Source: a virus (lineage: Duplodnaviria > Heunggongvirae > Uroviricota > Caudoviricetes). From it: a stretch of 64,000 nt of DNA. A program made the position numbers and the translations under genes. Location: IMG/VR virus record IMGVR_UViG_3300031999_000011, one strand, 5' to 3'. The notes below the pieces were generated by a model that worked only from the letters and a program-made list of their open reading frames with translations, ran no database searches and was not told where the DNA came from. Positions 13,036 to 61,989 of the stretch are shown piece after piece. The first letter of the stretch is position 1; the number at the start of each line of letters is the position of its first letter.

Positions 13036-13110
13036 GACGTGTTGGTATAGTGGTTGTTGCCCTGGTCTGCAAAACCAGTGAGAAGGGTTCAATTCCCTTA
13101 CACGTCTCCA
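13036..13110 (+). tRNA. tRNA-Cys (GCA), encoded CCA
   Basis: Acceptor GACGTGT/ACACGTC; anticodon stem CTGGT/ACCAG with loop CTGCAAA; T-arm AAGGG-TTCAATT-CCCTT; 3' T-CCA. Confidence 0.8.
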
Positions 13111-13127
13111 AACAATAAGGGATTAAT

Positions 13128-13562
13128 ATGATACATTCAAAATCGACTACACTTTGTATTAAGAAAGCAAATAATGAAGTCACTATGACTACTAGACTTT
13201 CGCAAATTACTAGTCTGTTAACAGATTATAATATTGTTTACGGTCGTAAAACTTTACGAGAAATCAATGAAATTCTTCAAGGTATACCCGATAATGGATA
13301 TTTAGATTATGAAATATTTGAATCAGTTGAACCTATGAATATGGATTTACATTATCATGATGATCTTGAAGCCCGAGTTATTACAACCGGGTTAGGTACG
13401 TTTTTGTTTCCAAGTGATGATGCTGTAATTGAATTACAAGTATCAGCTGGTGATTATATTGTTATTCCAGGTAAAATGAAACATAGTTTTAAAACCCCTG
13501 GTAATCTTGCTGCCATTCGATTGTTTACAAATTATGATGGTTATATTGCTAATTATGTATAG
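13128..13562 (+). CDS. cupin-fold protein (two-motif cupin, acireductone-dioxygenase-like)
   Basis: HYHDDLEARVITTGLG (H.H...E......G) and GDYIVIPGKMKHSF (G.....P.G..H) cupin motifs. Confidence 0.55.
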   Translation: MIHSKSTTLCIKKANNEVTMTTRLSQITSLLTDYNIVYGRKTLREINEILQGIPDNGYLDYEIFESVEPMNMDLHYHDDLEARVITTGLGTFLFPSDDAVIELQVSAGDYIVIPGKMKHSFKTPGNLAAIRLFTNYDGYIANYV

Positions 13563-13666
13563 AGTTTATTTTGAACAAATAAATTAATATGGTAAAAAAA
13601 TTACAAATTTAAGTTGATTTATTGTTATAAATATACTACAATATAATATAATAAATTGACTTAGAG

Positions 13667-14107
13667 GTGTTTATGATCACAATATATCCATATAAGCTAC
13701 CTGGTAGCTCGTATATGATGATTGATAGAACAGGGATTGAAGTTCCAGGTCTTGATGTTTGGGTGTTTGATGATGAACAGCACGGATTACATCAAGAAGC
13801 TCTTATTTCTGGTACAGATGAAGTTATTGAATTTGTAACTAAAGACATACCAGATGCTGAAAAAGGCTTTAAATTAATATTCAGTGATGAAATGTTTGAA
13901 AATTATCAATTAGTTGGATATTGGTACAAAGCAGGTTATGCTAAGGGACCTTGGGCTAGTGATATTAAAGGTAATTGGTATCTTTGGAATTTACCATTTC
14001 AAAATAATCCAAAAATATATGGTTGGTTGTGCCCAGCGTTGTTTTTATATTTTGAAACTGCTCCATCAAAATTATATATCAGAGTTGAACCTATTAAACC
14101 TAAATAA
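13667..14107 (+). CDS. hypothetical protein
   Basis: 146-aa ORF. Confidence 0.5.
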   Translation: MFMITIYPYKLPGSSYMMIDRTGIEVPGLDVWVFDDEQHGLHQEALISGTDEVIEFVTKDIPDAEKGFKLIFSDEMFENYQLVGYWYKAGYAKGPWASDIKGNWYLWNLPFQNNPKIYGWLCPALFLYFETAPSKLYIRVEPIKPK

Positions 14108-14136
14108 TTAATATAAGTCAAATATAGGGATATAAT

Positions 14137-14667
14137 ATGAAACTTGATGAATTAATTGCACAAACATTACCATTACCATATACATGGATAAACGATCATA
14201 CTGCTACATTCGAATTTAAAGGTATTACCTTTATAATAGCATTAGCACCAACAGATCCTATCAAATTTGAAAAACAGAAAGATGGGTTGCGAGGCTTACA
14301 TATTGCATTCGGGATTGCAACACGACATGATTCAGACGGAACATATGATTTAAATACTGAATTAACCGGATTACATAATGCACGATTAGTTATTGCGACA
14401 GTAACATATGCTATTATTGATAAACTTAATAGTATATCATCATTGTATGATTTTATAGCTATAGTATCTAAAAATGATGCAGCGATGTCATCAAGAACTA
14501 AAATTTATCGAGCCGCGGTTATTGACGTAACAGATCATTTAACTCGTATGGGATATCAGTATACATATCAGTTAAAAAATGAGTTAGGAGCTGGTGTTTT
14601 CTTAATCTCAAAAATAGAATTAACACAATGGCAAGCTCAATTTATTGCTAAATTTCATTGTTCTTGA
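14137..14667 (+). CDS. hypothetical protein
   Basis: 176-aa ORF. Confidence 0.5.
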   Translation: MKLDELIAQTLPLPYTWINDHTATFEFKGITFIIALAPTDPIKFEKQKDGLRGLHIAFGIATRHDSDGTYDLNTELTGLHNARLVIATVTYAIIDKLNSISSLYDFIAIVSKNDAAMSSRTKIYRAAVIDVTDHLTRMGYQYTYQLKNELGAGVFLISKIELTQWQAQFIAKFHCS

Positions 14668-14704
14668 ATAATATAAGTAAATTAAAATGGATTTAAGAAA
14701 TTAA

Positions 14705-15049
14705 ATGCGAGTTTTAAAATTTGTTCAATTAGATGACGATTTAGTACCTATATCTGAAATAATTAATGTTGATATATCACAAATAATTACTGAAACTGTT
14801 TTAGTGTTATTAAAAAACGGTAAGATATATACCATCGTTGGACATCCGGCTCTTGAGATTATTTGGAGACTTAAACCTTCAGCATTAGAGGGAAATAGAT
14901 GTATAATATGGAAAAAACATATGTGGGCAGTACATAATATAATAGCTCATCCTCTTATGCAGATATTTGCTTGGTTTGGTGCGTATGATTTAGCTATTTG
15001 TATACATGATAGTACAATTCCAAAACCTATTGGATATAAAACATATTAA
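14705..15049 (+). CDS. hypothetical protein
   Basis: 114-aa ORF. Confidence 0.45.
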   Translation: MRVLKFVQLDDDLVPISEIINVDISQIITETVLVLLKNGKIYTIVGHPALEIIWRLKPSALEGNRCIIWKKHMWAVHNIIAHPLMQIFAWFGAYDLAICIHDSTIPKPIGYKTY

Positions 15050-15055
15050 CGTATT

Positions 15056-15445
15056 ATGAATAATGTATCACTATTAGTATTAATTGCATTGTTTATACTT
15101 AAACATTTTGTTATTGATTTTTTTTTAGAAACTCCTTATCAATCTAATAATAAACATATATTAGGTCATTTAGGAGGTATATTGCATGCACAGTTACATA
15201 GTTTTACATCTTGGGTAATATTAGGATTTACATTTAACTTCTTTATACCTATAGTTGTGGTAGCTGTGGTAGCTGAATTTTTTATTCATTATTTTATTGA
15301 TTTAGTTAAAACAAATTTATGTGTATTATATAAATGGCAGTATAATACTCAAAAAGGGTTTTGGTATATGTTAGGTGCTGATCAAGCACTTCATTATTTG
15401 ACGTATATTGCGATGATATATTATATTATTACACATATTAATTAA
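15056..15445 (+). CDS. integral membrane protein (tandem paralog A, DUF3307-like His-rich TM protein)
   Basis: LKHFVIDFFLETPYQSNNKHILGHLGGILHAQLHSFTSWVILGF; 3-4 predicted TM segments. Confidence 0.55.
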   Translation: MNNVSLLVLIALFILKHFVIDFFLETPYQSNNKHILGHLGGILHAQLHSFTSWVILGFTFNFFIPIVVVAVVAEFFIHYFIDLVKTNLCVLYKWQYNTQKGFWYMLGADQALHYLTYIAMIYYIITHIN

Positions 15446-15449
15446 AATT

Positions 15450-15821
15450 GTGAACACTACATTATTGATTGTAATCGGACTTTTTACGATTAAACACTTT
15501 ATTATGGATGTTTTGTGTCAAACACCATATCAATTTCAACATAAACATATATTAGGACATCCAGGTGGAATTATCCACACATCATTACACGCATTTACGT
15601 CTTGGTTAATACTAGGATTTATATTTGGGTTTTTAACTCATGTAGTTGTAATTGCCGTTATATTTGAGTTTTTTGCTCATTATTTTATAGATTTTTTTAA
15701 AAGAAATTTCACATTAATGCATAAATTAACTCCAGCTGATTTGAACTATTGGTACGTATCAATATTTGATCAATTATTACATTATTTAACATATTTTTGT
15801 ATGATTTATTATATAATATAG
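15450..15821 (+). CDS. integral membrane protein (tandem paralog B)
   Basis: IKHFIMDVLCQTPYQFQHKHILGHPGGIIHTSLHAFTSWLILGF; about 55% identity to the previous ORF. Confidence 0.55.
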   Translation: MNTTLLIVIGLFTIKHFIMDVLCQTPYQFQHKHILGHPGGIIHTSLHAFTSWLILGFIFGFLTHVVVIAVIFEFFAHYFIDFFKRNFTLMHKLTPADLNYWYVSIFDQLLHYLTYFCMIYYII

Positions 15822-15979
15822 TGGCATTATAATTAGAAATAATGTATAATGTACTTAGAATTTAAGTTATAACAATTTTATGAATTATTTAAAAACTTTT
15901 GAATATATAATATGTTTTGAAGATAATTTAATTTAATTTAATTTAATTATATAATATTTTAAATATTTGGAGATAAATT

Positions 15980-16249
15980 ATGAATTACTATAATGTTAGT
16001 TTAGCAATTAGCGGATATGCATTTATGCGACGTATCAGTTATGAGTTGTATGATACATGTAATAAACTAATTAATGATGCACGTTCCCGTTATCGTTATA
16101 CCACAATTATATTAAATGGTATGGAATATGATGTAATATCATATGGTTATGGTTTTTACATTGCAGTAGCTGAACCAACATATAACCACCGTTTATCAAA
16201 TGTTAATCGTAGCAGTATTGAGTGCAATCATATTGTGGCCGAACAATAA
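15980..16249 (+). CDS. hypothetical protein
   Basis: 89-aa ORF. Confidence 0.4.
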   Translation: MNYYNVSLAISGYAFMRRISYELYDTCNKLINDARSRYRYTTIILNGMEYDVISYGYGFYIAVAEPTYNHRLSNVNRSSIECNHIVAEQ

Positions 16250-16276
16250 AATAATTCAATATATGATGATACGATA

Positions 16277-16510
16277 ATGTCAATTCAAGAATTTTTAGAT
16301 AGTTGTAATGATACAGTTGATATTGATAATTCATTCACTTTAAGTTGGTCCAAAGAAGGTGTCGGATTTGGTGAGTTTCGGTTTTATAAAAGTGAAGACG
16401 AGGCAATTCATATTAATAATGAATGTATGGGAAAGAATTTTATTAAAAATGTATTATGTAATATGGTTGATATTGCTATTTTAGATGATCCCTACGAAAA
16501 AATTGAATAG
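16277..16510 (+). CDS. hypothetical protein
   Basis: 77-aa ORF. Confidence 0.4.
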   Translation: MSIQEFLDSCNDTVDIDNSFTLSWSKEGVGFGEFRFYKSEDEAIHINNECMGKNFIKNVLCNMVDIAILDDPYEKIE

Positions 16511-16526
16511 GTTAAAATAATTATTA

Positions 16527-16814
16527 ATGCGAAATATAAACAATATATCTGTTAAACTTGACAAAGAATGTTATTGTCCTGTATGTAATTGTAAAATCAA
16601 TGCAGCTACAGCATTAGATGGTAGTGGTGTAGTACCTAATGCTGGAGATGTAAGTATGTGTGTCATGTGTTCTGCATATTTAAAATATTCAGATGATTTA
16701 ACTCTCCGTGAGCTAACAGTTGATGAACTGGTTGATTTACCAGATGATATATTATATGTGCTAACTAAAACACGTAGTATATTTAAAAATATAAGTGGCA
16801 ATAAAAACTGTTAA
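16527..16814 (+). CDS. small Cys-rich (zinc-binding?) protein
   Basis: CYCPVCNC...CVMC. Confidence 0.4.
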   Translation: MRNINNISVKLDKECYCPVCNCKINAATALDGSGVVPNAGDVSMCVMCSAYLKYSDDLTLRELTVDELVDLPDDILYVLTKTRSIFKNISGNKNC

Positions 16815-16911
16815 TTGATAAGTTATATAGGAGAATAATTATGATTAAATTATAAATTGTCTACCATTGATAAATACAATTTTTTTCTAATTTCGTTTAA
16901 AGTGACTTAAA

Positions 16912-17556
16912 ATGTTTATATTTGATATATCTAGCCTCATAATAGGGGCAATGTTTGGCGGTATTTGGGCATCTATATTCTCAACTATGTTTATTGCTGC
17001 GGTAATTTTATTAACCGCTACTGATGAATTTTGGTGGTCATATGGATCATTATTATTGTATACTGTAATATTAGCAATATTTACACCAGCTAATCCGTTT
17101 TTATATATTTGGCACAATCCACTAAGCTCTATCGAAATTTTTATTGGATATTTTATAATAGGTGCCGTTTTTGCTTTATTAAAGTACTGGTCTTTTATAC
17201 AAAGGGTTGTACAGAAAATAAAAGATTTTAAGAAACAATTTATTATTGATAATAAACTTGAAATATCTACAATTGATGAAATACCAGAAGAGTATAAAAA
17301 ATTATGGAATAGTTATAAATCACAGAAGTTATCAAGTTCAGAATTACATAAAATTAATAATGGTTTACGTCCGAGTAATAACTCAGCACTTATTATGAAT
17401 TGGATTGCATGGTGGCCATTTGTGGCTGTAGGGTTATTTGTTGCAGATCCATTAAGAAAGTTGGTTAAAGCAATATACGAACATCTAGTTTCCACCTTTG
17501 GGAAAATGTATGAACATATTGTTACAAAAAACATCAATATGACAGACTTAAAATAA
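16912..17556 (+). CDS. integral membrane protein
   Basis: Five or more hydrophobic segments in the N-terminal 170 aa. Confidence 0.55.
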   Translation: MFIFDISSLIIGAMFGGIWASIFSTMFIAAVILLTATDEFWWSYGSLLLYTVILAIFTPANPFLYIWHNPLSSIEIFIGYFIIGAVFALLKYWSFIQRVVQKIKDFKKQFIIDNKLEISTIDEIPEEYKKLWNSYKSQKLSSSELHKINNGLRPSNNSALIMNWIAWWPFVAVGLFVADPLRKLVKAIYEHLVSTFGKMYEHIVTKNINMTDLK

Positions 17557-17573
17557 CATATGAGGAAGATTTA

Positions 17574-17744
17574 ATGTTAGAAGATATAGTGTTAGATATA
17601 TGTGGTGCACTTGGGTTAATTGTATGTGGTGTAATTGGTATTGGTGTGTTTGCAGCATGTATTGCATTCCCGTGGATCCTAGGTATTGTAGGTGCAATAT
17701 CAATTAATGCAGTGATAGAAAACGATGAATCATTAGTACTTTAA
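17574..17744 (+). CDS. small membrane protein (56 aa)
   Basis: SD GAGGAAG upstream; two hydrophobic helices with GxxxG-like spacing. Confidence 0.35.
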   Translation: MLEDIVLDICGALGLIVCGVIGIGVFAACIAFPWILGIVGAISINAVIENDESLVL

Positions 17745-17768
17745 TACTTAAGTTTATACGAATAAGTA

Positions 17769-17978
17769 ATGCAAAACGAATCAATTGATTATCCAGTAGC
17801 TTCAGCAAATAAACCATATCGAGTGACAGCATATCATTATACCCGTAATAATAACCGTAGTTTTATCGTTGGAGATTATCGCTGGTATTGGCAAGCTAAT
17901 TTAGTATCTTGGTGGTGGCATCAACTAGGATGGGGTTGTAACACATGGAAAAAATACAACAACATTTCTGAAGCTTAA
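17769..17978 (+). CDS. hypothetical Trp-rich protein
   Basis: 69-aa ORF. Confidence 0.35.
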   Translation: MQNESIDYPVASANKPYRVTAYHYTRNNNRSFIVGDYRWYWQANLVSWWWHQLGWGCNTWKKYNNISEA

Positions 17979-18082
17979 GATCTATTATTGATCAAATAAT
18001 AGGTCATCAAATTGCTGAAGAAATTTGGGGTGGCTCAATTACTCGTAAACCACGTATATTACCAACTATTAAGGTAACAAAA

Positions 18083-18478
18083 ATGGAACAATATTTGATA
18101 GATGATTATGGAGTTATTGAAAGTGAACAATATCTTCAACGAGTTGAAGATATAGAGCCTTATTTTGAAAATTGTAGTGAGGGTATGTTTGATTGTGGTC
18201 GAGGATATTATCAAGATGAAATTTACCGTTTTGTAAAAATTGGTGATAAGTTTTATAATGTACGCATTACAGCAGTAATATATAATCACAAGCAAGATCG
18301 TGGTGCTGAATTATACTATGTAAATTCAATTGCTGATGTTACATATAACGAAATTGATAAACCATTACCGATTCTAAAAAAATTGATTAATTTGGAGGTA
18401 GCAATATCTGATTCACGATTAGCAGAATTGAAAGAGTGGTTAGATACACACGGTGTAGAATATAGTAATTTTGCATAA
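18083..18478 (+). CDS. hypothetical protein
   Basis: 131-aa ORF. Confidence 0.5.
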   Translation: MEQYLIDDYGVIESEQYLQRVEDIEPYFENCSEGMFDCGRGYYQDEIYRFVKIGDKFYNVRITAVIYNHKQDRGAELYYVNSIADVTYNEIDKPLPILKKLINLEVAISDSRLAELKEWLDTHGVEYSNFA

Positions 18479-18627
18479 GATTTAATTTGATTTTTACTTA
18501 AAATGGATATATAATATCTTTATGTTGTTAAACAGGAGGAGTTATATGGATATAACATAGATTTAACTAAAATACATTTTGTCTTTTAGTTAAATTACAT
18601 GTGTCGAATTTGTATAAATAAAGAATT

Positions 18628-18702
18628 GGTAGATGAGCTAGTTTGGAATAGCGTGCGCCTGAAGAGCGTGAGAATAAGGTTCGAATCCTTGATCTACCAC
18701 CA
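18628..18702 (+). tRNA. tRNA-Phe (GAA), encoded CCA
   Basis: Acceptor GGTAGAT/ATCTACC; D-arm GCTA-GTTTGGAA-TAGC; anticodon loop CTGAAGA; T-loop TTCGAAT; A-CCA. Confidence 0.8.
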
Positions 18703-18710
18703 GAATTAAT

Positions 18711-18786
18711 TGGGCTATAGTGTAATTGGAAACACCTCACACTTTGACTGTGATATTGTTCGGTTCGAGTCCGGCTAGCCCTACCA
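18711..18786 (+). tRNA. tRNA-Gln (TTG), encoded CCA
   Basis: U1 start as in bacterial tRNA-Gln; D-arm GTGT-AATTGGAA-ACAC; anticodon stem TCACA/TGTGA with loop CTTTGAC; T-loop TTCGAGT; 1:72 U-U mismatch. Confidence 0.7.
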
Positions 18787-18858
18787 CTTTTAAAAAGATA
18801 AATAAGTAGATACACTAAAAGTAGTGGTTAAAATATAATATACGTAGGAGATTGTATA

Positions 18859-19245
18859 ATGATAAAATTAATATTTATAGCACTATTATGTGTTTTTGTT
18901 ACAGGTTGTGCATCAATGAGCAATTGGACGCCAACAGTTGATACATATAACGATAGACGTGCATCTCATATCCCGCAAGATCAAGCAGAGTGCAGACAAT
19001 TAGCATCTCAAGCATCTGGTGGAACAGTTAAAGAAACCTTTACCGGTGCAGGTGTAGGAGCATTAATAGGTGCAGCAGGTGGAGCAATCGCTGGAGCGTT
19101 TATCGGAAATCCAGCAACTGGTGCAGCGATTGGTGCTGCTGCAGGTGGTTTTGGTGGTGGTGCTGGATTGGGCTTCAACGCCGAGAACAATTATAAACAA
19201 TCATACAAAGTTTGTATGAGACACAGAGGTCATACAGTAATTTAG
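18859..19245 (+). CDS. OsmB/SlyB-like glycine-zipper outer-membrane lipoprotein
   Basis: Lipobox FVTGCAS; GAGVGALIGAAGGAIAGAFIGNPATGAAIGAAAGGFGGG glycine zipper; paralog of 33194..33673. Confidence 0.65.
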   Translation: MIKLIFIALLCVFVTGCASMSNWTPTVDTYNDRRASHIPQDQAECRQLASQASGGTVKETFTGAGVGALIGAAGGAIAGAFIGNPATGAAIGAAAGGFGGGAGLGFNAENNYKQSYKVCMRHRGHTVI

Positions 19246-19258
19246 TATGAAAAATTAT

Positions 19259-19336
19259 GCGCTCGTAGCTCAATTGGATTAGAGCATAGGATTTCTAATC
19301 CTATGGTTGGAGATTCGAATTCTCTCGAGCGTGCCA
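19259..19336 (+). tRNA. tRNA-Arg (TCT), encoded CCA
   Basis: Acceptor GCGCTCG/CGAGCGT; anticodon stem TAGGA/TCCTA with loop TTTCTAA; T-arm GGAGA-TTCGAAT-TCTCT; G-CCA. Confidence 0.8.
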
Positions 19337-19353
19337 AACATTAAAAGAATTAT

Positions 19354-19431
19354 GTCCATGTAGCTCAATTGGATTAGAGCATCGGTCTACGAAACCGAAG
19401 GTTATCCGTTCAAATCGGATCATGGATACCA
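19354..19431 (+). tRNA. tRNA-Arg (ACG), encoded CCA
   Basis: Acceptor GTCCATG/CATGGAT; anticodon stem TCGGT/ACCGA with loop CTACGAA; T-arm ATCCG-TTCAAAT-CGGAT; A-CCA. Confidence 0.8.
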
Positions 19432-19472
19432 AATGGTAAAAAAATGATATATAATATATCTTAATGAATAAT

Positions 19473-19548
19473 GCAGGTGTAGCTCAATGGGTAGAGCGCC
19501 GTCCTTCCAAGTCGGATGTTGCAGAATCGTCCTCTGTCACCTGCTCCA
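19473..19548 (+). tRNA. tRNA-Gly (TCC), encoded CCA; atypical T-loop ATCGTCC
   Basis: Acceptor GCAGGTG/CACCTGC; anticodon loop CTTCCAA; one mismatch in the anticodon stem; A54/U58 instead of T54/A58. Confidence 0.65.
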
Positions 19549-19555
19549 ATTTTAT

Positions 19556-19631
19556 GCTTCGTTAGCTCAATGGGTAGAGCACTGCATTGTCACTGCAGAG
19601 GCAGCGGGATCATAGCCCGCACGAGGCGCCA
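19556..19631 (+). tRNA. tRNA-Asp (GTC), encoded CCA; atypical T-loop ATCATAG
   Basis: Acceptor GCTTCGT/ACGAGGC; anticodon stem CTGCA/TGCAG with loop TTGTCAC; T-stem GCGGG/CCCGC; G-CCA. Confidence 0.7.
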
Positions 19632-19663
19632 AATATAATGTAATTATATCAATTAAATGATTT

Positions 19664-19885
19664 ATGAAATTTCACAAACTTGAAGTATACGTTTTCGATT
19701 TTGAAGAAGGTGATAATATTAAAGATATTATCGTTGAAATTGAACAAAATCGACATTTTAATATGGAAGTTAAAGCTCATCAAACAGTTGATATTGGTGA
19801 ATGGGATGATGATCATGAATTAAATCTAACACGCACTTCATTAGAACAGTTTAGAGCGTATTTTGAAAAGAATAATGTCGGGTGA
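19664..19885 (+). CDS. hypothetical protein
   Basis: 73-aa ORF lying between tRNA genes. Confidence 0.4.
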   Translation: MKFHKLEVYVFDFEEGDNIKDIIVEIEQNRHFNMEVKAHQTVDIGEWDDDHELNLTRTSLEQFRAYFEKNNVG

Positions 19886-19922
19886 TACTCATGTGAATCC
19901 GTGAGTCTGGTTATAATTAAAT

Positions 19923-20000
19923 GGGCCTGTATCCCAATTGGTAAGAGGACACCGGCTTAGACCCGGTGTGTTGGAGATTCGAATTCTCTCAGGCCTACCA
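19923..20000 (+). tRNA. tRNA with anticodon TAG (Leu, reads CUA) but class-I short variable loop; encoded CCA
   Basis: Acceptor GGGCCTG/CAGGCCT; 3-bp D-stem; anticodon stem ACCGG/CCGGT with loop CTTAGAC; variable GTGTT; T-arm GGAGA-TTCGAAT-TCTCT; A73-CCA. Confidence 0.6.
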
Positions 20001-34368: not shown

Positions 34369-34581
34369 ATGCAAGCACATAAAGTAACATGTCGTTTAAA
34401 GAATGGTAATATTAAAAAATATGAAGTTGATGGAGTTGACACTGCGCAAGCGGCAAGAGAATTTGTAATATCACAAGTTAAAAATATACGTACTGTGTTA
34501 GCTTTAGTTAATTCTCCAAGTATACATCCAGAACCATTGGAATTTGAACCAGAAGACCTACCACCTAAACGATATGCATAA
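34369..34581 (+). CDS. hypothetical protein
   Basis: 70-aa ORF; SD GGAGTGA upstream; its stop overlaps the next start (ATGCATAA). Confidence 0.4.
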   Translation: MQAHKVTCRLKNGNIKKYEVDGVDTAQAAREFVISQVKNIRTVLALVNSPSIHPEPLEFEPEDLPPKRYA

Positions 34582-35095
34582 TATTTTAAAGTTAACTTCG
34601 TCTGTGTTATATATGCCAATTGGACCGTCTGGTTGTGGTAAAAGCACATTATATCATAAGTTACGAGGTGTACAACGAGAATTACATAATTTATCAAAGG
34701 ATAGTATACGTTGTTTATTATACGGTGATGATTATGCTAAAGCTTGGATAGCTGCAAATAATGATAAAGATTTTGTAGCTAAAGTAAAAGTTATATATGA
34801 GAAAATGTTAGGTGAAAAAAGCAAAATATATTTAGATAACACTAACTTGTCTCCAAAAATTCGTAGGTATTGGTTGACAGAAGCAAGTAAATACAATTAT
34901 ACAAAAATTGCTATTGTATTTGATGTAGATGTAGATATATTATTATCTCGTCAAGTGACTCGTGAAGATAAAACAGTACCAAAAAGTGCTATTTACCAAC
35001 AAGTAGCAGCGCTTAAACAACCTGTTATTGGTGAGTTCGATGTTGTATATTCAATAATTGATGTAATTAGAGTATTAGAAAATGTTAACACATAA
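34574..35095 (+). CDS. P-loop nucleotide/polynucleotide kinase-like protein (AAA_33/zeta-toxin-like fold)
   Basis: Walker A GPSGCGKST near the N-terminus; DNTN (Walker-B-like). Confidence 0.6.
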   Translation: MHNILKLTSSVLYMPIGPSGCGKSTLYHKLRGVQRELHNLSKDSIRCLLYGDDYAKAWIAANNDKDFVAKVKVIYEKMLGEKSKIYLDNTNLSPKIRRYWLTEASKYNYTKIAIVFDVDVDILLSRQVTREDKTVPKSAIYQQVAALKQPVIGEFDVVYSIIDVIRVLENVNT

Positions 35096-50058: not shown

Positions 50059-50325
50059 ATGGATAATTCAAAAGCATATCGTCAAGTAATTGACAATTTA
50101 GTATATCACGCCACAAATGTTATAATTCAAGCTTTACACGATGATACATCATCACACTCAGTTCTAGATATTATTACAACTAGACAATCCGCTATATGGA
50201 ATCAATTAGATAATATAGTTGCTATTTGTTCTACAACATATCACATATCAATTGAACAAATAATTTCAGATTATACAACGCGATTAGCTTTTATTATGAC
50301 TCAAAAACTTAACGAGTGCGGTTAA
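50059..50325 (+). CDS. hypothetical protein
   Basis: 88-aa ORF. Confidence 0.45.
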   Translation: MDNSKAYRQVIDNLVYHATNVIIQALHDDTSSHSVLDIITTRQSAIWNQLDNIVAICSTTYHISIEQIISDYTTRLAFIMTQKLNECG

Positions 50326-50944
50326 GTTGTATAAGTTTCGATATTTGGGTATATTCACTACAATTAATATAGTAACAGTTATCTGCATATAACATAACTT
50401 CATGTCCACTTGTAATTCCTGCTCGCAAGTTTGTATTTTGATATAGTGATTCAAATTCTGGTGTATCAATATATTTTAATAATGTTCCGATAACTTTAGG
50501 TTCTTCATGATATAAGGATGTAAGAGTACCAAACAGATCTTTTGTTTTTCTATTTAAATAATTAAATAAATCTGAAATTTGTGGAGACCAGATAAACTTA
50601 AATTCACCAAGTGGTATTACAACATATATAGTTGAGCTGTACGTTTCTGCATCAGACATATTACTTGTTGTAAATGTACCATTTCTAAACGGGATTCCAA
50701 ATTTTGTTTTAAACACTCTATTAATTGCAGCATGTAAGTGTATAGGGATATCTCTTGGTTTTCTATTATCGCGATACCCAGGTAATATAATAACTGGATT
50801 TAATGATTTACCTGCACCTCTGTATAATACATATTCATCAGTATCATAGTTAATTAATTCCAAAAACGGTTTACATGTCGATATAATATTATTGGCAATA
50901 TGTTCGTATGGAGATTTTGTATCATTAAGTTCTAGTAATTTCAC
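50309..50944 (-). CDS. paralog A of a two-member family; possible R-S-E type ADP-ribosyltransferase fold
   Basis: CKPFLE...YVLYRG ... TFTTSNMSD ... SGHEVMLY; about 30% identity to 55767..56396 on the + strand. Confidence 0.45.
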   Translation of the reverse strand: MKLLELNDTKSPYEHIANNIISTCKPFLELINYDTDEYVLYRGAGKSLNPVIILPGYRDNRKPRDIPIHLHAAINRVFKTKFGIPFRNGTFTTSNMSDAETYSSTIYVVIPLGEFKFIWSPQISDLFNYLNRKTKDLFGTLTSLYHEEPKVIGTLLKYIDTPEFESLYQNTNLRAGITSGHEVMLYADNCYYINCSEYTQISKLIQLNRTR

Positions 50945-52090: not shown

Positions 52091-52504
52091 ATGAAAAAAA
52101 TGATAATAGTTATGAGAACTGATCTTAATATGAGATGTGGAAAGCAAATTATCCAAGGTGCGCACTGTGCAGTTAATGTTATTTTACAACAAGGTGAGAT
52201 TTTATCACATAACAATGAAATGGGTATTTTTATACCATTAACAGCCGATTTAACTGAATGGTTAAATGGTGATACGTTTGAGTTATTTAATGGTAAGTAT
52301 ACCAAAATAACTGTCGGAGTAAATTCAGAAGATGAAATAATTGATCTTTGTAGACAAGCTGATTTTGCAAGTATTAATTATAAAATTACAACAGATTTAG
52401 GACTTACTGAATTTCACGGTATTCCGACTATTACAAGTTGTGCAATAGGTCCTGCCGATGTAGATGAAATTGATAAAATAACTGGTCATTTAAAATTATT
52501 ATAA
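52091..52504 (+). CDS. peptidyl-tRNA hydrolase, PTH2 family
   Basis: KMIIVMRTDLNMRCGKQIIQGAHCAVNV matches the PTH2 signature KMVLVVRTDL.MGKGKIAAQC.HA. Confidence 0.8.
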   Translation: MKKMIIVMRTDLNMRCGKQIIQGAHCAVNVILQQGEILSHNNEMGIFIPLTADLTEWLNGDTFELFNGKYTKITVGVNSEDEIIDLCRQADFASINYKITTDLGLTEFHGIPTITSCAIGPADVDEIDKITGHLKLL

Positions 52505-54487: not shown

Positions 54488-55345
54488 ATGACAACATTTA
54501 CATTATCAATAACAGATGCTCCAACTGGAGATTTTAATTTATACATGCGAGCTATTCGCCGTGTTCCGAGATTAACAAAAGAACAAGAATATGAATTAGC
54601 TATAAAATATAAAGAGTATAATGATATATCTGCGGCTCAAACATTAATTTTATCTAATTTACGATTTGTGGTGTATATTGCTAAAACATTTAAAAAATGT
54701 AATATTCCATTGTCTGATATAGTACAAGAAGGTAACATTGGATTGATGAAAGCTGTATCTAATTTTGATCCATACGCAGGTGTTAGATTAGCGTCATATG
54801 CAGTATATTGGGTAAAAGCAGCTATAGTTGAATATATTATAAAGAATAATAATGTGGTTAAAACTATATTATCAAAGCCTCATCGAAAAGTGTTTTTTAA
54901 TATTAACAAATATATTAAAGAAGGTGAACAATTAACTGCCGACTTAGTTAATACAATAGCGACAGAGTTATGTGTTACTACACGAAATGTGTATGATGTT
55001 ATTGAACGTATGTCTCATCGTGAAGTACCTTTTGACTTTACTGATGATGTATCAACTAATTTTTCACTTGCAGAAATATTAACGTCTTCAGATGTTGACC
55101 CGGCTAAGATCATTGAACAAGAACAAGAATTAAAGTGGCAATATGAAATATTAACAAAAGCGTTACAACAATTAGATGCACGTAGTTTAGATATTATTAC
55201 TTGTAGAAAATTAATAGATCCCCCGATGACATTTAAAGAATTAGGAGTGAAATATCATTCCACTCATCAAAATATTGAACAAATTGAAAAACGAGCGATG
55301 AAAAAAATAAAGAATTTTATACAAAACGAGGTTAATAATGTTTAG
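54488..55345 (+). CDS. sigma-70 family RNA polymerase sigma factor (RpoD/RpoH-like regions 2 and 4)
   Basis: DIVQEGNIGLMKAVSNFDPYAGVRLASYAVYWVKAAIVEYI (regions 2.2-2.4) and MTFKELGVKYHSTHQNIEQIEKRAMKKIKN (region 4.2 HTH). Confidence 0.85.
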   Translation: MTTFTLSITDAPTGDFNLYMRAIRRVPRLTKEQEYELAIKYKEYNDISAAQTLILSNLRFVVYIAKTFKKCNIPLSDIVQEGNIGLMKAVSNFDPYAGVRLASYAVYWVKAAIVEYIIKNNNVVKTILSKPHRKVFFNINKYIKEGEQLTADLVNTIATELCVTTRNVYDVIERMSHREVPFDFTDDVSTNFSLAEILTSSDVDPAKIIEQEQELKWQYEILTKALQQLDARSLDIITCRKLIDPPMTFKELGVKYHSTHQNIEQIEKRAMKKIKNFIQNEVNNV

Positions 55346-55766: not shown

Positions 55767-56396
55767 ATGTCTACAACATTTAAACAATATTTAATAGAAG
55801 GTTTATCAACAAAAGAAATTTACGACGTTGTTGAAGAAATTGTTACTAATTGTAAACCGTATTTAAACGAAATTAAAGACCCACATAATTATATGTTATA
55901 TCGAGGAGTATCACAATTAGTTTCACCAACTGGTGATATTCATAACACTCATCGAGATAGAATACCCAGTGACACAAGTTCTTCATTTCACAAAGCATTA
56001 GATGAGTGGTTTGTTAATAAATTTAATATTAGATTTAGAAGTCATTATTCAATGTTTTGTACACCAAATATGCATCAAGCTGCGTCGTACGGAAATGTTT
56101 GTGTTATATATCCAATCGGTAAGATTAATTATATCTGGGCTCCTAAAATGCGTGACTTGTTTGCGTATATTGCACATAAAGAAAGAATAAATAATATATC
56201 ACAAAACACTACACCTGAAGAAGCATATAAACATATAAATAAATGGTTTAACGAAGATAATGTTGAATATTATTTTAATACACAGTTAACCTCAAATGCG
56301 AATAATGAAGTAATGATTCACGTACCTAGTTATTATGTTATACCATTACAAACACAGCAAACTATTGAATATGGTTTAGCGAAACGAATGAAATAA
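55767..56396 (+). CDS. paralog B of the two-member family; possible R-S-E type ADP-ribosyltransferase fold
   Basis: CKPYLNEIKDPHNYMLYRG ... NNEVMIHV; paralog of the minus-strand ORF 50309..50944. Confidence 0.45.
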   Translation: MSTTFKQYLIEGLSTKEIYDVVEEIVTNCKPYLNEIKDPHNYMLYRGVSQLVSPTGDIHNTHRDRIPSDTSSSFHKALDEWFVNKFNIRFRSHYSMFCTPNMHQAASYGNVCVIYPIGKINYIWAPKMRDLFAYIAHKERINNISQNTTPEEAYKHINKWFNEDNVEYYFNTQLTSNANNEVMIHVPSYYVIPLQTQQTIEYGLAKRMK

Positions 56397-57158
56397 TTAT
56401 CTCATTTTACTTGTCCATTTGGACATTGCTACCCCAACATCATCGACATTTCGGTAAATATGTGGAGATAAACTCTTACTACCGGTACTTTTAATTACAT
56501 TAAAATATTTATTTCCAGTTGGGTTCATAATTGGTGACATATAAAAATTATTAATTTGATTTGCAGCTTGAGTAAACTCAATATCATTTGAGTTAGTGTT
56601 GATAATAATAAAAGGGCCACCTCCTTGTATAGGTATTTTTTCACTTAGATATTGTATATTGTGGTCTTCTTGGTGAGACGCTCTTATAATGTAATCAGGA
56701 TCAACATGTCTTGGTCTTTTAGCCGCTCTTTCTATACTGGTTTCTAAATCCGTACGGATCCATAAAATACCAATATCATAACCCATTGAATATAAAATAT
56801 CTATCCTATTTAACATTGATTTGGGGTTTGTTGCAGTACCATCAATTAATAGTGGTAACATATTATGTACGTAATGAATTAATTGTTCCTTATTTAAGTC
56901 TTGAGCTTTTGTTAATATAGGTATAATTTCTCGTGGATTTGCGTTAGGTCCGACATCGATATTGTGTTTTATACTTAAGTATTCATAAAATTTATCAAAG
57001 TTAATAATTTTAGGATAAACTCTACAATGTAATAATAATCGTTTTGCGAGAGTGCTTTTTCCACTACCTGGTAATCCAGCTATAAATATAGCTTTAAATA
57101 TACCAGCATCATTAATACCTTCAATTAATATATTATTGTTAATTTCACTAATTTTCAT
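56397..57158 (-). CDS. P-loop kinase (AAA_33/zeta-toxin/polynucleotide-kinase-like)
   Basis: Walker A AGLPGSGKSTLAKRL; divergent from the Thg1-like gene. Confidence 0.6.
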   Translation of the reverse strand: MKISEINNNILIEGINDAGIFKAIFIAGLPGSGKSTLAKRLLLHCRVYPKIINFDKFYEYLSIKHNIDVGPNANPREIIPILTKAQDLNKEQLIHYVHNMLPLLIDGTATNPKSMLNRIDILYSMGYDIGILWIRTDLETSIERAAKRPRHVDPDYIIRASHQEDHNIQYLSEKIPIQGGGPFIIINTNSNDIEFTQAANQINNFYMSPIMNPTGNKYFNVIKSTGSKSLSPHIYRNVDDVGVAMSKWTSKMR

Positions 57159-57259
57159 TGATATTGCCTGTATATGTAGTTATATTATATTTATATTAGT
57201 TGATTTATGTCGGTAATTACGTTATAATGCACAGATCAACTATTAAAAGGATAACATAA

Positions 57260-57985
57260 ATGAGTATAAGAGATAATTTAGGAAATCGTATGAAAAAATA
57301 TGAAACTGTTCATACTAATTTTTTAATGCGTAGAACACCTGTAATAATTCGTATTGATGGTAAGGCTTTCCATACATGGACGAGAAATTGTGAGCAACCA
57401 TTTGATGAAATGTTACACGAATCAATGAAAGCTACTATGCGTTTTTTAGTTAATGAAATGCAAAATGCAGTTTATGGATATACTCAAAGTGATGAGATTT
57501 CAATTCTATTATGCGATTGGTTGACATTTACTACTGAACAATGGTTTGATGGTAATATTCAAAAAATTGCATCTGTATCAGCTAGCCTTGCAACAGGTAT
57601 ATTTAACGCAATTCCAAACAATCATACCTCGCAACTTGCGTTTTTTGATGCACGGGTTTTTAATGTACCTTTTGCTGATGTACATAATTATTTCTTGTGG
57701 AGACAACAAGACGCTACTCGAAATTCAATTCAAACATACGCACGTGCTTACTTTTCTCATAAAGAGTTACACAAAAAATCTTGCAATGAAATTCAACAAA
57801 TGTTGTTTGAACAACATGGTGTAAACTGGAATGATTTAGATGTTTGGAAAAAACGTGGTTCACATGTTTATCGAGTACCTGATGAAGTACAAGGTGGTAC
57901 TTGGATGTATCATACTGAAATGCCAATTATTAATAAAGACTTCGCCGCGTTTGGACCCATAAATACATATTTAAAAATGGAGTAA
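57260..57985 (+). CDS. tRNA-His guanylyltransferase (Thg1) / Thg1-like 3'-5' polymerase
   Basis: IIRIDGKAFHTWT (compare VVRLDGRNFHRF), YGYTQSDEISIL (AYGQSDEYSFV), YFLWRQQDATRNSI (YLSWRQADCHINNL). Confidence 0.85.
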   Translation: MSIRDNLGNRMKKYETVHTNFLMRRTPVIIRIDGKAFHTWTRNCEQPFDEMLHESMKATMRFLVNEMQNAVYGYTQSDEISILLCDWLTFTTEQWFDGNIQKIASVSASLATGIFNAIPNNHTSQLAFFDARVFNVPFADVHNYFLWRQQDATRNSIQTYARAYFSHKELHKKSCNEIQQMLFEQHGVNWNDLDVWKKRGSHVYRVPDEVQGGTWMYHTEMPIINKDFAAFGPINTYLKME

Positions 57986-59260: not shown

Positions 59261-60037
59261 ATGCTAATTACACATGAAGTACCGTTTAGTTTGTTAGAAA
59301 TGTCTAGAGAATTCAATGATATAGATTATGTTCTCGTGCATTTACTGGAAGATTACCCAAATTACTACAAGTTTTTTGAAAAATCATTAGCAATGGGGCG
59401 TACAGTAATTTTAGACAACAGTATTTTTGAGCTCGAAGAGGTCTTTGATGCTGACAGGTTTGCGTATTGGGTTGAAAGATTAAAACCAACTGAATATATT
59501 ATTCCAGATGTACTTGATAATAGTACAGCGACTATTGAGTCATGTATGAATTGGATAACTGAGTATAGTCATTTACCTGGTAAGACAATTGGTGTTATTC
59601 AAGGTGCAACCGTTGAAGATGCGATTGAATGTTATTCAACAATATCTTTGTTAGTTGATAAAGTTGCGATTAGTTTTAATTGTAAATTTTATGAGTACTT
59701 ATATCCCCATACAAATAAATTATTTTCATGGATGCACGGTAGGCAAATGTTTATTGATTTATTAATAGATGAAGGTATAATTAACATATCACAACCGTTT
59801 CATTTATTAGGAATAGCTCTTCCTCAGGAAATACAACATTATAAGAGTGGATATGATTTTATTGAAAGTATTGATACCAGCAACCCAATAGTGCACGCAA
59901 TCAATAATATTTCATATAAATCATATGGGTTAGATAGTAAAGTAAGTGAAAAAATGATAAATTATTTGCATTATACTGAAATTGATCACAATATTTTAAA
60001 TCATAATATAAAAAAATTTAGGAGCTTTATAAAATGA
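59261..60037 (+). CDS. hypothetical protein; candidate DpdA/TGT-like transglycosylase
   Basis: RTVILDNSIFEL resembles the TGT catalytic-Asp motif ILTDSGGFQV; IDTSNPIVH resembles the second catalytic-Asp motif FDCVLPTR; inference from motifs and neighbourhood only. Confidence 0.5.
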   Translation: MLITHEVPFSLLEMSREFNDIDYVLVHLLEDYPNYYKFFEKSLAMGRTVILDNSIFELEEVFDADRFAYWVERLKPTEYIIPDVLDNSTATIESCMNWITEYSHLPGKTIGVIQGATVEDAIECYSTISLLVDKVAISFNCKFYEYLYPHTNKLFSWMHGRQMFIDLLIDEGIINISQPFHLLGIALPQEIQHYKSGYDFIESIDTSNPIVHAINNISYKSYGLDSKVSEKMINYLHYTEIDHNILNHNIKKFRSFIK

Positions 60038-60561
60038 AATGGCTAGCACTATTTAGTCAAACCGGTAGTGAACTTAAAAATATTATTGAGCAGACTGGAC
60101 GTAAACCTAATATGGTTTTAACAAACAGATTAGGTTCATCTGAAATTGATGGAGTGGTACCGATAACATATACTCCTAAAACACCTACTTCAATTGTATA
60201 CAATTTTTATTTTAATCATTATGATATTATCACATTACATGGTTATTTGAGAATAATATCACCTGATGCTTGTGATCATTTAATTTATAATGGACATCCT
60301 GCTGCTATTCATTTATATCCTGAATTGAAAGGTAAAGATAAACAAGAAGATGCATTTATTTACAAAGACAAATATCCAAGAATGGGAGTTGTTATTCATC
60401 GAGTAACACCTGAATTGGATGCTGGTGAAATTATAATGTGTCATGATGTAATTAATGATACAACAAGTATTGAAGATGCATATCAAAAATTAGCTAATTT
60501 ATCTGTTAGGCAATGGGTTATATTCGTAAAGAATAGACCAAATATGGGAGAACTCGTATGA
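60034..60561 (+). CDS. PurN-type (GAR-transformylase family) formyltransferase
   Basis: LALFSQTGSELKNIIE (VVLISGNGSNLQAIID), GYLRIISP...NGHPAAIHLYPELKG (GFMRILSP...NIHPSLLPKYPG; catalytic N and H conserved), IHRVTPELDAGEII (VHFVTDELDGGPVI; catalytic D conserved). Confidence 0.85.
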   Translation: MKWLALFSQTGSELKNIIEQTGRKPNMVLTNRLGSSEIDGVVPITYTPKTPTSIVYNFYFNHYDIITLHGYLRIISPDACDHLIYNGHPAAIHLYPELKGKDKQEDAFIYKDKYPRMGVVIHRVTPELDAGEIIMCHDVINDTTSIEDAYQKLANLSVRQWVIFVKNRPNMGELV

Positions 60562-61085
60562 AACTGGCACTTTGTGGGGTACACGGATCCGGAAAAACAA
60601 CATTATTAAATACGATACAAGAATTGAATCTGTTACCCGGTTATTATTATTCTACTAATTTAACTCGTAGATTAAGGGATCAGGGATATCTTATTAGTGA
60701 TAAGGGTGATGATGCGACACAAAATGCAATAATGAGTGTTCATAGAGCTAATATGGCATATACTGATATAATTATGGATAGATCTGCTTTAGATTGCTAT
60801 GTATATACTGAATACTTATATCGACAGGATAAGGTAAGTGGACTAACTAGTCAAAAGCTTTTTTCGCAAGCGATGGATTGTGTTAACAGGTATAATATTA
60901 TGTTTTACATTAAGCCAGAATTTGAATTAGAAGATGATGGTGTGCGACCTATTGATCAAAAATTTCAAAATGATATTGTGGAAACTTTTGATCGTATAAT
61001 AACTTTGTGTAGGTTACGAGTTACGTTATTGACAGGAACCGTTGATCAAAGAATTGAACAATTTAAACAAACATTAGGGATATAA
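60558..61085 (+). CDS. P-loop NTPase / (d)NMP-kinase-like protein
   Basis: MKLALCGVHGSGKTTLL Walker A at the extreme N-terminus, like phage dNMP kinases; start overlaps the upstream stop. Confidence 0.6.
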   Translation: MKLALCGVHGSGKTTLLNTIQELNLLPGYYYSTNLTRRLRDQGYLISDKGDDATQNAIMSVHRANMAYTDIIMDRSALDCYVYTEYLYRQDKVSGLTSQKLFSQAMDCVNRYNIMFYIKPEFELEDDGVRPIDQKFQNDIVETFDRIITLCRLRVTLLTGTVDQRIEQFKQTLGI

Positions 61086-61086
61086 T

Positions 61087-61989
61087 ATGTCAGATATTAA
61101 TAAACATTTAGGGCAAGTTTCGCAATATAGTTCAACATATTCACCAGATATTTTAGTACGTGAGAGTCGGTTGTTGAATCGGGAGGCACACTATGTAGAT
61201 TCAGATTCGTTTGTTGGTTATGATGTGTGGAATTTATATGAAGTTTCAGCATTAACTGATAATGGACTACCAGTTGTAGGGTTCGGTAAACTAATATACT
61301 CTGCTTCTAGTAAGTATATTGTTGAATCAAAATCTTTGAAATTGTACTTTTTTAGTTACAATATGGAGAAACTGTGGAGAAATACTGATGATGTTATTGA
61401 TACGATGGAACGACAAGTAGTTATTGATTTGTCATCATTACTTGAAACACCTGTTCAATTTAAGTTCTTTCACGCAAATGATAATCATATACCATATGCT
61501 CCATTTCAACTAACAGAAGATAGCAAAATACCATGTAAATTTAAAAATATTGATAATATTGATGGTGTTGAAGATATTAAATTTGTCGATTTTAAAGAAA
61601 ATAAAGATTTGTTAAAAGTTGAATATAATGATAAATTATGTTATAATGCTATAACATCTTGTTTTTTAAGATCGAATTGTCGCATAACTCATCAACCAGA
61701 TTGGGGGGACATTTATGTTTATTATAGAGGTGATTATCAATTAGATGAATTATCTTTTATTAAGTACATTGTTAGTTTTAGAAATGAATTCCACTTTCAT
61801 GAAGAGGTTTGTGAAATGATATATGCTGTATTATATAACATACTACAACCTAAAGAATTACTCGTAGGTTGTTTGTATACTCGGCGAGGGGGTTTAGATA
61901 TAAATCCTATACGAGCAACTCATACTTTTTTATTAGATTCTGGATTAATTGATATTAACACTGTTGTACAAAAAACAACAAGACAATAA
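61087..61989 (+). CDS. queF: NADPH-dependent 7-cyano-7-deazaguanine (preQ0) reductase, bimodular YqcD-type QueF
   Basis: Colinear with E. coli QueF: GYDVWNLYEVS, VESKSLKLYFFSY (E(S/L)K(S/A)LK(L/Y)(Y/F) QueF motif), SNCRITHQPDWGDIYVYYRG (catalytic Cys in NC.ITHQPDW), YIVSFRNEFHFHEEVCE, YTRRGGLDINP. Confidence 0.9.
   Translation: MSDINKHLGQVSQYSSTYSPDILVRESRLLNREAHYVDSDSFVGYDVWNLYEVSALTDNGLPVVGFGKLIYSASSKYIVESKSLKLYFFSYNMEKLWRNTDDVIDTMERQVVIDLSSLLETPVQFKFFHANDNHIPYAPFQLTEDSKIPCKFKNIDNIDGVEDIKFVDFKENKDLLKVEYNDKLCYNAITSCFLRSNCRITHQPDWGDIYVYYRGDYQLDELSFIKYIVSFRNEFHFHEEVCEMIYAVLYNILQPKELLVGCLYTRRGGLDINPIRATHTFLLDSGLIDINTVVQKTTRQ

Follow-up and report, generated by a model that had tools for sequence, protein, structure and literature searches.

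Does a P-loop kinase gene that lies head to head with the gene for a Thg1-like protein (TLP) in a tailed phage supply the 5'-phosphate ends on which the TLP would act, or do the two neighbors belong to different systems? The question is raised by positions 56397-57985 of a 64,000-nucleotide (nt) stretch of DNA, here called the window, from a virus of the class Caudoviricetes (IMG/VR record IMGVR_UViG_3300031999_000011), where an initial annotation read the two genes as a candidate tRNA 5'-end repair pair. Both open reading frames (ORFs) and the Walker A sequence of the kinase were found as annotated, in divergent orientation (Table 1). Across the loci compared, the flagged kinase co-varied with a neighboring 209-amino-acid (aa) ORF and not with the TLP. 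The reading that we favor, with slightly more than even confidence, is that the TLP works alone within a dispersed RNA-repair set, whereas the kinase and the 209-aa ORF form a separate module that is a candidate for packaging into the virion.

The logic of joining Thg1 to a polynucleotide kinase (PNK) is already described, as is the phage toolkit of Thg1, CCA-adding enzyme and peptidyl-tRNA hydrolase PTH2 (PMC2904730, PMC7824862). Anantharaman, Iyer and Aravind (2010; PMC2904730) reported Thg1-PNK operons in bacteria, proposed that the kinase supplies the 5'-phosphate for Thg1, and noted Thg1 in large DNA viruses. Because the idea is published, the question becomes whether the flagged kinase fits that role. 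As first posed, the kinase-TLP finding matters little, since its elements had been described and the adjacency is seemingly incidental. What is useful is, first, that the likely 5'-kinase is reassigned to another ORF, at 34574-35095, in a repair set that reaches past the window (TROVE, RNA ligase) and, second, that a kinase family labeled merely AAA/zeta-toxin in databases is linked, through adjacency, fusion and published proteomic data, to virion proteins of a multi-copy family with T4-like targeting leaders.

Genomic partners of the flagged kinase

The 209-aa ORF abuts the 3' end of the kinase without a gap, belongs to the family phrog_11975 (9.1e-35), and is adjacent to the kinase in all six clade members. 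Among 89 kinase loci the family was present in 14, including six of the nine closest IMG/VR relatives, frequently in three to four tandem copies, while it was present in none of 160 TLP loci. In the Agrobacterium jumbo phage Atu_ph07 the two are fused: the 778-aa protein AUZ94865 (gp53) joins the kinase to the 209-aa family, and its N-terminus matches phrog_11975 at 4e-9. In the window, a search for terminators around the point where the kinase and the 209-aa ORF converge gave none.

The 209-aa family is marked by the conserved motifs Y-R-G, R-x-D-R-x-P-x-D, F-x-[TS]-G, W-S-P and E-[IV]-M. A profile of the protein found no match in the PDB, and a single-sequence structure model (predicted local distance difference test score, pLDDT, 40.8) was too poor for fold comparison. 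A Pfam match of the ORF to RnlA-toxin_DBD (E = 0.0079) was below the cut-off and was disregarded. By eye, as an impression only, the motifs resemble those of R-S-E ADP-ribosyltransferases such as T4 Alt. One member of the family (L076/L077) reaches 934 aa and has long C-terminal repeats. Two genes upstream of the 209-aa ORF, at 54488-55345, lies a gene for a sigma-70-family sigma factor of 285 aa (regions 1.2, 2 and 4), which is kept in relatives.

No TLP was found within the flanks of 80 other IMG/VR loci holding a relative of the flagged kinase (the locus sets comprise the 80 best of at least 548-590 matches, with partial redundancy and some short flanks), nor in the flanks of the kinase loci of RsoM2USA, Atu_ph07 and HTVC008M. 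In the reverse direction, a BLAST search with the flagged kinase gave no match in 80 viral and 80 bacterial TLP loci, and a hidden Markov model (HMM) of the kinase gave only weak cross-matches in the TLP loci, on ORFs that scored better as the other kinase type described below. The next-closest TLPs (64% and 59% identity) had no relative of the flagged kinase nearby. Unbiased clustering of neighbors around the 80 kinase loci and the 80 viral TLP loci revealed a dominant partner in neither set, and no near-identical DNA was found among deposited phages.

Adjacency of the kinase and the TLP is restricted to the narrow clade of the window. Metagenome relatives keep the order sigma factor, 209-aa ORF, inverted kinase, TLP, lipoprotein and SNase. 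The full order is kept in L004/L005 (kinase 68% identical), L009 (64%) and L255, and L008 shows the same order, with the first 25 TLP codons present at the contig edge; in L006 (kinase 58% identical) the order is again the same and the kinase is kept, with two unrelated small ORFs in the TLP slot. The TLP is far better conserved than the kinase in the related phages, and the two neighbors therefore evolve at different rates. Identities to the window proteins, TLP versus kinase, were 85% versus 68% in L004 and 80% versus 64% in L009.

The divergent transcription to which the initial annotation drew attention is correct as to orientation, but it carries little weight because 93 of the 100 ORFs counted in the window lie on the + strand and the kinase is merely one of seven inverted genes. 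The spacer between the kinase and TLP ORFs measures 101 nt. Upstream of the TLP slot is a promoter-like element (Table 1), both hexamers of which are kept in L004, L009 and L008, and the TATAAT of which is kept in L006, where another gene follows. Because promoter-like matches in the window were not enriched over shuffles (19 vs 24.1), the case for this element is one of conservation. The slot of the TLP would be a replaceable one, served by a conserved promoter-like element of its own. The flagged kinase and the TLP are most likely not a functional pair, and their adjacency is probably incidental.

The Thg1-like protein and its candidate 5'-kinases

The identification of the 241-aa protein as a Thg1/TLP enzyme with conserved motifs was borne out. 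It contains a Thg1 palm domain (PF04446, 3.9e-29; 101.7 bits against a cut-off of 29.2) and matches phrog_4717 at 2.2e-86; its best solved relative is the TLP of Bacillus thuringiensis (4KGK, 3.1e-58 over residues 5-228), with which it has in common the fold, the length, the three metal-binding carboxylates and the TLP-type motif. These carboxylates, D33 (the Asp of RIDG) and D78 and E79 (of SDE), are invariant in 38 family members and align with those of 4KGK, 5AXK and 3WBZ. The loss of metal ligands that would have refuted the Thg1 half of the initial annotation was thus not seen. The motif reads wrqqdatrnsiq in the phage protein, as against wrqqdasknsis in the B. thuringiensis TLP and wrqvdchinnly in Candida Thg1, and HINNLYN is absent. 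The protein thus appears, from its residues, to be a bacterial-type TLP with a catalytically competent-looking active site. At least 8000 relatives scored better than 1e-10, and annotated copies are found in 164 deposited phage genomes; the identity of the window TLP is <60% to deposited phage TLPs and at most 56% to those of IMG/VR phages. Nothing notable sets it apart from bacterial TLPs or from phage genes annotated as tRNA-His guanylyltransferases; the gene is ordinary and of a kind already common in phages.

By homology to characterized bacterial TLPs, the protein would activate a tRNA 5'-phosphate with ATP or GTP and would add missing 5' nucleotides of the acceptor stem in the 3'-to-5' direction, using the 3' strand as template. 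The source of the window is a 73-kb Joint Genome Institute (JGI) contig with ~9 kb of extra sequence beyond the window. All 13 phage tRNAs on it encode CCA, and the acceptor stems of 12 are fully paired; maturation therefore needs neither the CCA enzyme nor the TLP, which favors repair roles. Editing of mismatched 5' acceptor stems of phage tRNAs by the TLP was likewise rejected, since 12 of the 13 stems are fully paired. The sole unpaired acceptor position among the 13 is a U1.U72 mismatch in tRNA-Gln (18711-18786). The genes most often found around the TLPs of other phages were those for CCA-adding enzyme, RlaP nucleotidyltransferase and metallophosphoesterases, together with tRNA arrays. 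In L094, L113, L114 and L133 the TLP follows closely on the end of a large tRNA array, and tmRNA genes lie within 10 kb of a TLP in three viral contigs (L102, L103 and L136).

It is highly unlikely, in our estimation, that the TLP serves not general 5'-end repair but the addition of G-1 to a tRNA-His, encoded either elsewhere in the phage genome or by the host. Database annotations do name these proteins tRNA-His guanylyltransferases, a tRNA-His is present in the tRNA array upstream of the TLP in L114 and L133, and the genome exceeds 120 kb, of which 73 kb is covered. Nevertheless, ARAGORN found no tRNA-His among the eight tRNAs of the window, in agreement with the initial annotation, nor in the ~9 kb of extra source contig (13 tRNAs in 73 kb); the protein is TLP-type, without the HINNLY of eukaryotic Thg1; and bacterial TLPs are reported to prefer templated repair of truncated tRNAs (PMC4820378).

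If the substrates of the TLP carried 5'-OH ends, the better candidate to phosphorylate them would be the Pnkp-type kinase of ORF 34574-35095, which lies ~22 kb from the TLP. This ORF, the start of which may be at 34613, giving a 160-aa product as in P0241, matches AAA_33 (4.2e-16), phrog_505 'polynucleotide kinase' (2.4e-19) and TIGR04075, the kinase module of bacterial Pnkp (3.6e-14). Its best PDB match by sequence is T4 Pnk (7.4e-5), and in alignment with T4 Pnk it shows GKST, D-x-x-R (D-S-I-R), TNL (N-T-N-L) and R-x3-R..VP. In bacterial TLP loci a Pnkp-type kinase of ~147 aa lies downstream of the TLP on the same strand, after a gap of 9-48 nt; clustering recovered it in 11 loci and an HMM in 16 of 80; the proposed logic, a kinase making the 5'-phosphate for Thg1, would be the same in the phage, whereas the relative in the window is 22 kb off. 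Compared with these bacterial kinases by hhalign, the ORF 34574 family scored 99.2% (E = 1.4e-19) and the flagged family 97.6% (E = 4.3e-12). The HMM of the former finds them at about 1e-13 to 1e-15, while that of the flagged kinase found none of 16 at 1e-5. In phages L166 and L167 a Pnkp-type kinase ends 18 nt upstream of the TLP. Because its family is related both to the TLP-linked kinases and to T4 Pnk, ORF 34574-35095 would be the candidate should the TLP depend on a 5'-kinase; judged by sequence relationship it, and not the flagged gene, is likely the 5'-kinase of the phage RNA-repair set.

For the flagged kinase itself, the description of its Walker A as polynucleotide-kinase-like turned out not to be diagnostic. 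Pfam returned generic AAA_33 (3e-9) and Zeta_toxin (7e-8), there was no match in NCBIfam and no PDB sequence match to Pnk, and phrog_505 scored only 2.8e-8, versus 2.4e-19 for ORF 34574. The protein also falls in phrog_12810, a family of unassigned function, and its family spans phages as different as marine T4-like pelagiphages and jumbo phages, on at least 548 viral contigs. An AlphaFold model based on a multiple sequence alignment was confident (pLDDT 88.6) and would place the kinase in the PNK/PSTK/zeta clade, a placement that does not discriminate among substrates. K34 of the Walker A, D55 (the catalytic Asp ~20 residues on), and R144 and R148 of an R-x3-R lid are invariant or nearly so; these features are not specific to Pnk because they are common to the whole clade. 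No equivalent of Arg38 of T4 Pnk (D35-x-x-R38) was found, the flagged kinase reading D55-K-F-Y and the family consensus D-x-x-F-E, and in place of the D/N-T-N motif of Pnk the flagged kinase reads D-G-T.

These comparisons bear on the proposal that the two divergent genes form a cassette, in which the kinase would phosphorylate the 5'-OH ends of nuclease-damaged tRNAs and the adjacent TLP would rebuild the 5' strand of the acceptor stem. Five related phages preserve the adjacency, the kinase belongs structurally to the PNK/PSTK/zeta clade with a catalytic Asp and R-x3-R lid as in Pnk, and Thg1-PNK operons are known in bacteria (PMC2904730) and seen in a few phages (L166, L167). We nonetheless consider the cassette very unlikely: the kinases of genuine Thg1-PNK pairs belong to the ORF 34574 family, the TLP is found in 0/80 kinase loci and the flagged family (by BLAST) in 0/160 TLP loci, and L006 retains the kinase without the TLP. 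In addition, the flagged kinase is without an Arg38 equivalent or an NCBIfam PNK match, and the two genes lie on opposite strands, as opposed to the same-strand bacterial pairs with gaps of 9-48 nt. The role of 5'-end-activating partner to the TLP is accordingly not supported for the flagged kinase, its adjacency being clade-confined and ORF 34574 fitting the role better.

Leader sequences and candidate virion packaging

In T4 the capsid-targeting sequence (CTS) MKTYQEFIAE is cut off behind its Glu after packaging (PMC8442874), and the internal proteins of T-even phages are diverse anti-defence proteins with only the leader in common (PMC3012670). Both the flagged kinase and the 209-aa protein begin with a CTS-like leader of ~10 residues, MKISEINNNILIE/G and MSTTFKQYLIE/G, respectively (the slash marks the leader junction). 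Leaders of the kinase family follow M-x-x-F-K-x-[FY]-L-x-E, as in MLTFKQFINE/S, MQSFKQFLNE/S and MKSFKTFLDE/G, and the strict leader motif occurs in only 1 of 116 window ORFs, the 209-aa gene. The common start of gp53-60 in Atu_ph07 is M-[KR]-W-x-[QD]-L-[TN]-E, and inside gp53 the kinase domain begins at SEVTE/GVNDKHIFKAIF.

For homologues of the two proteins, a virion location is shown by the proteome of Atu_ph07 virions, in which gp53 (87.08 kDa; identified as AUZ94865 by accession order and molecular masses) was detected with 31 unique peptides and 45.5% coverage (PMC6102473 Table S5). It was most abundant in a low-mass band (PMC6102473 Table S5), and fragments are therefore suggested. Also detected in the virions were gp54-65, of which gp54-60 are paralogues of the 209-aa family; the fusion protein and its paralogues were abundant there, and gp204 of the same phage is a homologue of the T4 gp21 protease (PMC6102473). 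Proteomics of RsoM2USA, which covered the 10 most abundant bands only, did not list ORF254, a relative of the kinase.

Because of the CTS-like leaders and the virion-borne homologues in Atu_ph07, the kinase and the 209-aa protein are candidates for packaged, injected proteins. By analogy with those homologues, the flagged kinase, as part of a module with the abutting 209-aa ORF distinct from the TLP, probably travels inside the capsid and enters the host together with the DNA. The likeness to the T4 internal proteins (IPI-III) would lie in similar leaders, ending in L/I-x-E, on otherwise unrelated, fast-evolving, multi-copy proteins; here, by contrast, the putative cargo is a P-loop kinase and a YRG-motif family. 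A broader version of this proposal is that the kinase and the 209-aa YRG protein belong to a class of capsid-targeted enzymes that is widespread and as yet undescribed, bearing T4-CTS-like leaders and injected with the DNA, the kinase acting on a host or phage target at the onset of infection. We put it forward tentatively, as falling somewhat short of an even chance. Were packaging true, one more kinase would join the short list of phage enzymes injected with DNA, and the leader would give a sequence rule for finding further cargo proteins in metagenomes.

Several points weigh against separating the kinase from the TLP and assigning it to the capsid. The kinase-TLP pair is kept in the five related phages together with a shared intergenic region, and the locus sets (the best 80 of at least 548) address adjacency and not genome-wide co-occurrence. 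Packaging is known only for a 37%-identical domain in the larger Atu_ph07 protein, other domains of which could be capsid-targeting. Since E13, D17 and K22 are invariant even where the kinase domain is internal, the leader junction (E-G-[IV]-N-D) may belong to the fold and not be a cleavage site. Finally, neither structural genes nor a prohead protease were visible in the 73-kb contig.

Two further readings of the kinase concern its activity. One is that it is a zeta-toxin-like small-molecule kinase, acting on UDP-GlcNAc, NAD or a nucleotide in host takeover or nucleotide metabolism. It has both a Zeta_toxin domain match above the cut-off (32.6 vs 22.3 bits) and structural similarity to zeta toxins, its nearest BFVD matches are annotated as zeta toxin domain proteins, the kinase of HTVC008M adjoins a cytidylyltransferase-like protein, and such an activity would be compatible with virion packaging. 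The top structural match, however, is not a zeta toxin, no antitoxin-like neighbor was recognized, and PADLOC returned no defence-system match for the flagged kinase (nor for the 209-aa ORF or the TLP). Identity to PSTK and zeta toxins is only 14-17%, and the flagged kinase differs from them in a conserved N-terminal E-x3-D-x4-K and a C-terminal helical extension of ~60 residues. On balance we regard this activity as unlikely.

The other reading starts from the commonest neighbor of the kinase family, DUF6267 (phrog_455), which occurs, without exception on the same strand, in 17 of 89 kinase loci (adjoining, for example, at L003:3224-4453), and which forms a single protein with the kinase in P0078 and L074 (749 aa, L074:9965-12211). 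Here the kinase would be a cytoplasmic nucleic-acid end-healing enzyme, neither packaged nor related to the TLP, with DUF6267 as a ligase-like sealer; by eye, its invariant K-W-D-G, Q-G-D, E-G-x-V-A and K-x-x-D-R could correspond, in that order, to ligase motifs I, III, IV and V. A search of solved structures with a DUF6267 profile turned up no ligase, an hhalign comparison with the phage's own RNA ligase gave 0.3% probability, no DUF6267 gene was found in the window, and the homologue of the kinase in Atu_ph07 is a virion protein, all of which makes this reading quite unlikely. The assignment of DUF6267 as a ligase was itself set aside, the motif reading by eye having support from neither the PDB profile search nor hhalign. 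In P0101 (431 aa) a kinase homologue carries, as a C-terminal fusion, a ParB-like domain in which the motif NGHHRYDA is seen (phrog_620, 9e-10).

Feature coordinates, the dispersed RNA-repair set and other window genes

The features of the locus are collected in Table 1, together with a second member of the 209-aa family and the RNA-repair genes of the window.

Table 1. Coordinates of the flagged genes and associated features within the 64,000-nt window
Feature	Position	Strand	Details
P-loop kinase, 253 aa	56397-57158	-	Walker A GLPGSGKS; PSTK/PNK/zeta-toxin clade; phrog_12810 family; leader MKISEINNNILIE/G
Thg1-like protein (TLP), 241 aa, bacterial-type, predicted template-dependent 3'-5' nucleotidyltransferase for tRNA 5' ends	57260-57985	+	
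209-aa protein, phrog_11975 family	55767-56396	+	motifs YRG, F-x-[TS]-G, E-[IV]-M; leader MSTTFKQYLIE/G
Second 209-aa-family member, 211 aa, GTG start, leader MKLLE	50309-50944	-	family HMM 7.6e-61
Kinase-only Pnk/Pnkp-type polynucleotide kinase candidate, 173 aa	34574-35095	+	
CCA-adding enzyme (tRNA 3'-end repair)	3218-4387	+	PolyA_pol 2e-14 and RNA-binding domain; NF008137 6.3e-82
Peptidyl-tRNA hydrolase PTH2	52091-52504	+	PF01981 7.4e-24
Eight tRNA genes (Cys, Phe, Gln, Arg x2, Gly, Asp, Leu)	13036-20000	+	ARAGORN
Promoter-like element TTGATT-17 nt-TATAAT	57200-57228	+	upstream of TLP slot; 10/12 match to consensus

The CCA-adding enzyme, PTH2 and eight tRNAs on which the initial annotation built its view of a repair toolkit are all present. 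The theme of RNA repair stands, and the TLP would be part of an RNA-maintenance set comprising the CCA enzyme, two PTH2 proteins, the Pnkp-type kinase of ORF 34574-35095, a TROVE/Ro protein and, in a relative, an RNA ligase. Such a toolkit is already described: the RNA-repair components of jumbo phages listed by Iyer et al. (2021; PMC7824862) include Thg1, CCA-adding enzyme, PTH2, RlaP and TROVE. Set beside T4 Pnk/Rnl1 and that repertoire, the parts are the same (Pnk-type kinase, RNA ligase in the near-identical relative, CCA enzyme, Thg1, PTH2 and TROVE); they differ in being dispersed and not in one operon, and the kinase is without a phosphatase domain. Nor did the window yield a phosphoesterase.

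Several genes of related function were observed outside the window. The second PTH2 (155 aa, L253 1573-2040) lies ~4.4 kb upstream of the window start, and the source contig carries five further tRNA genes (Ser, Ala, Met and Leu x2) on the same side. The TROVE/Ro60-like protein (528 aa; L251 11815-13401) is encoded ~1.8 kb past the window end. In the near-identical relative (L250 5452-8493), TROVE is followed by the RNA ligase (389 aa, PF09414 and PF21189), after which come dUTPase_2, two TelA-like proteins and a vWA-TerF-like protein.

A gene run at 59261-61989 is kept in relatives and encodes a 258-aa phrog_19058 protein, a formyltransferase-like protein (175 aa), an AAA_28 P-loop protein (175 aa) and a QueF-like nitrile reductase (300 aa); it may represent a 7-deazaguanine (preQ) pathway, perhaps for DNA modification. 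Genes related to NAD or ADP-ribose include SIR2 (1408-2121) and, by Pfam matches, a NADAR domain protein and two SLOG/LSDAT_prok proteins. The window also encodes an aspartate decarboxylase, R2K ATP-grasp proteins, a Band_7 protein and a fatty-acid hydroxylase.

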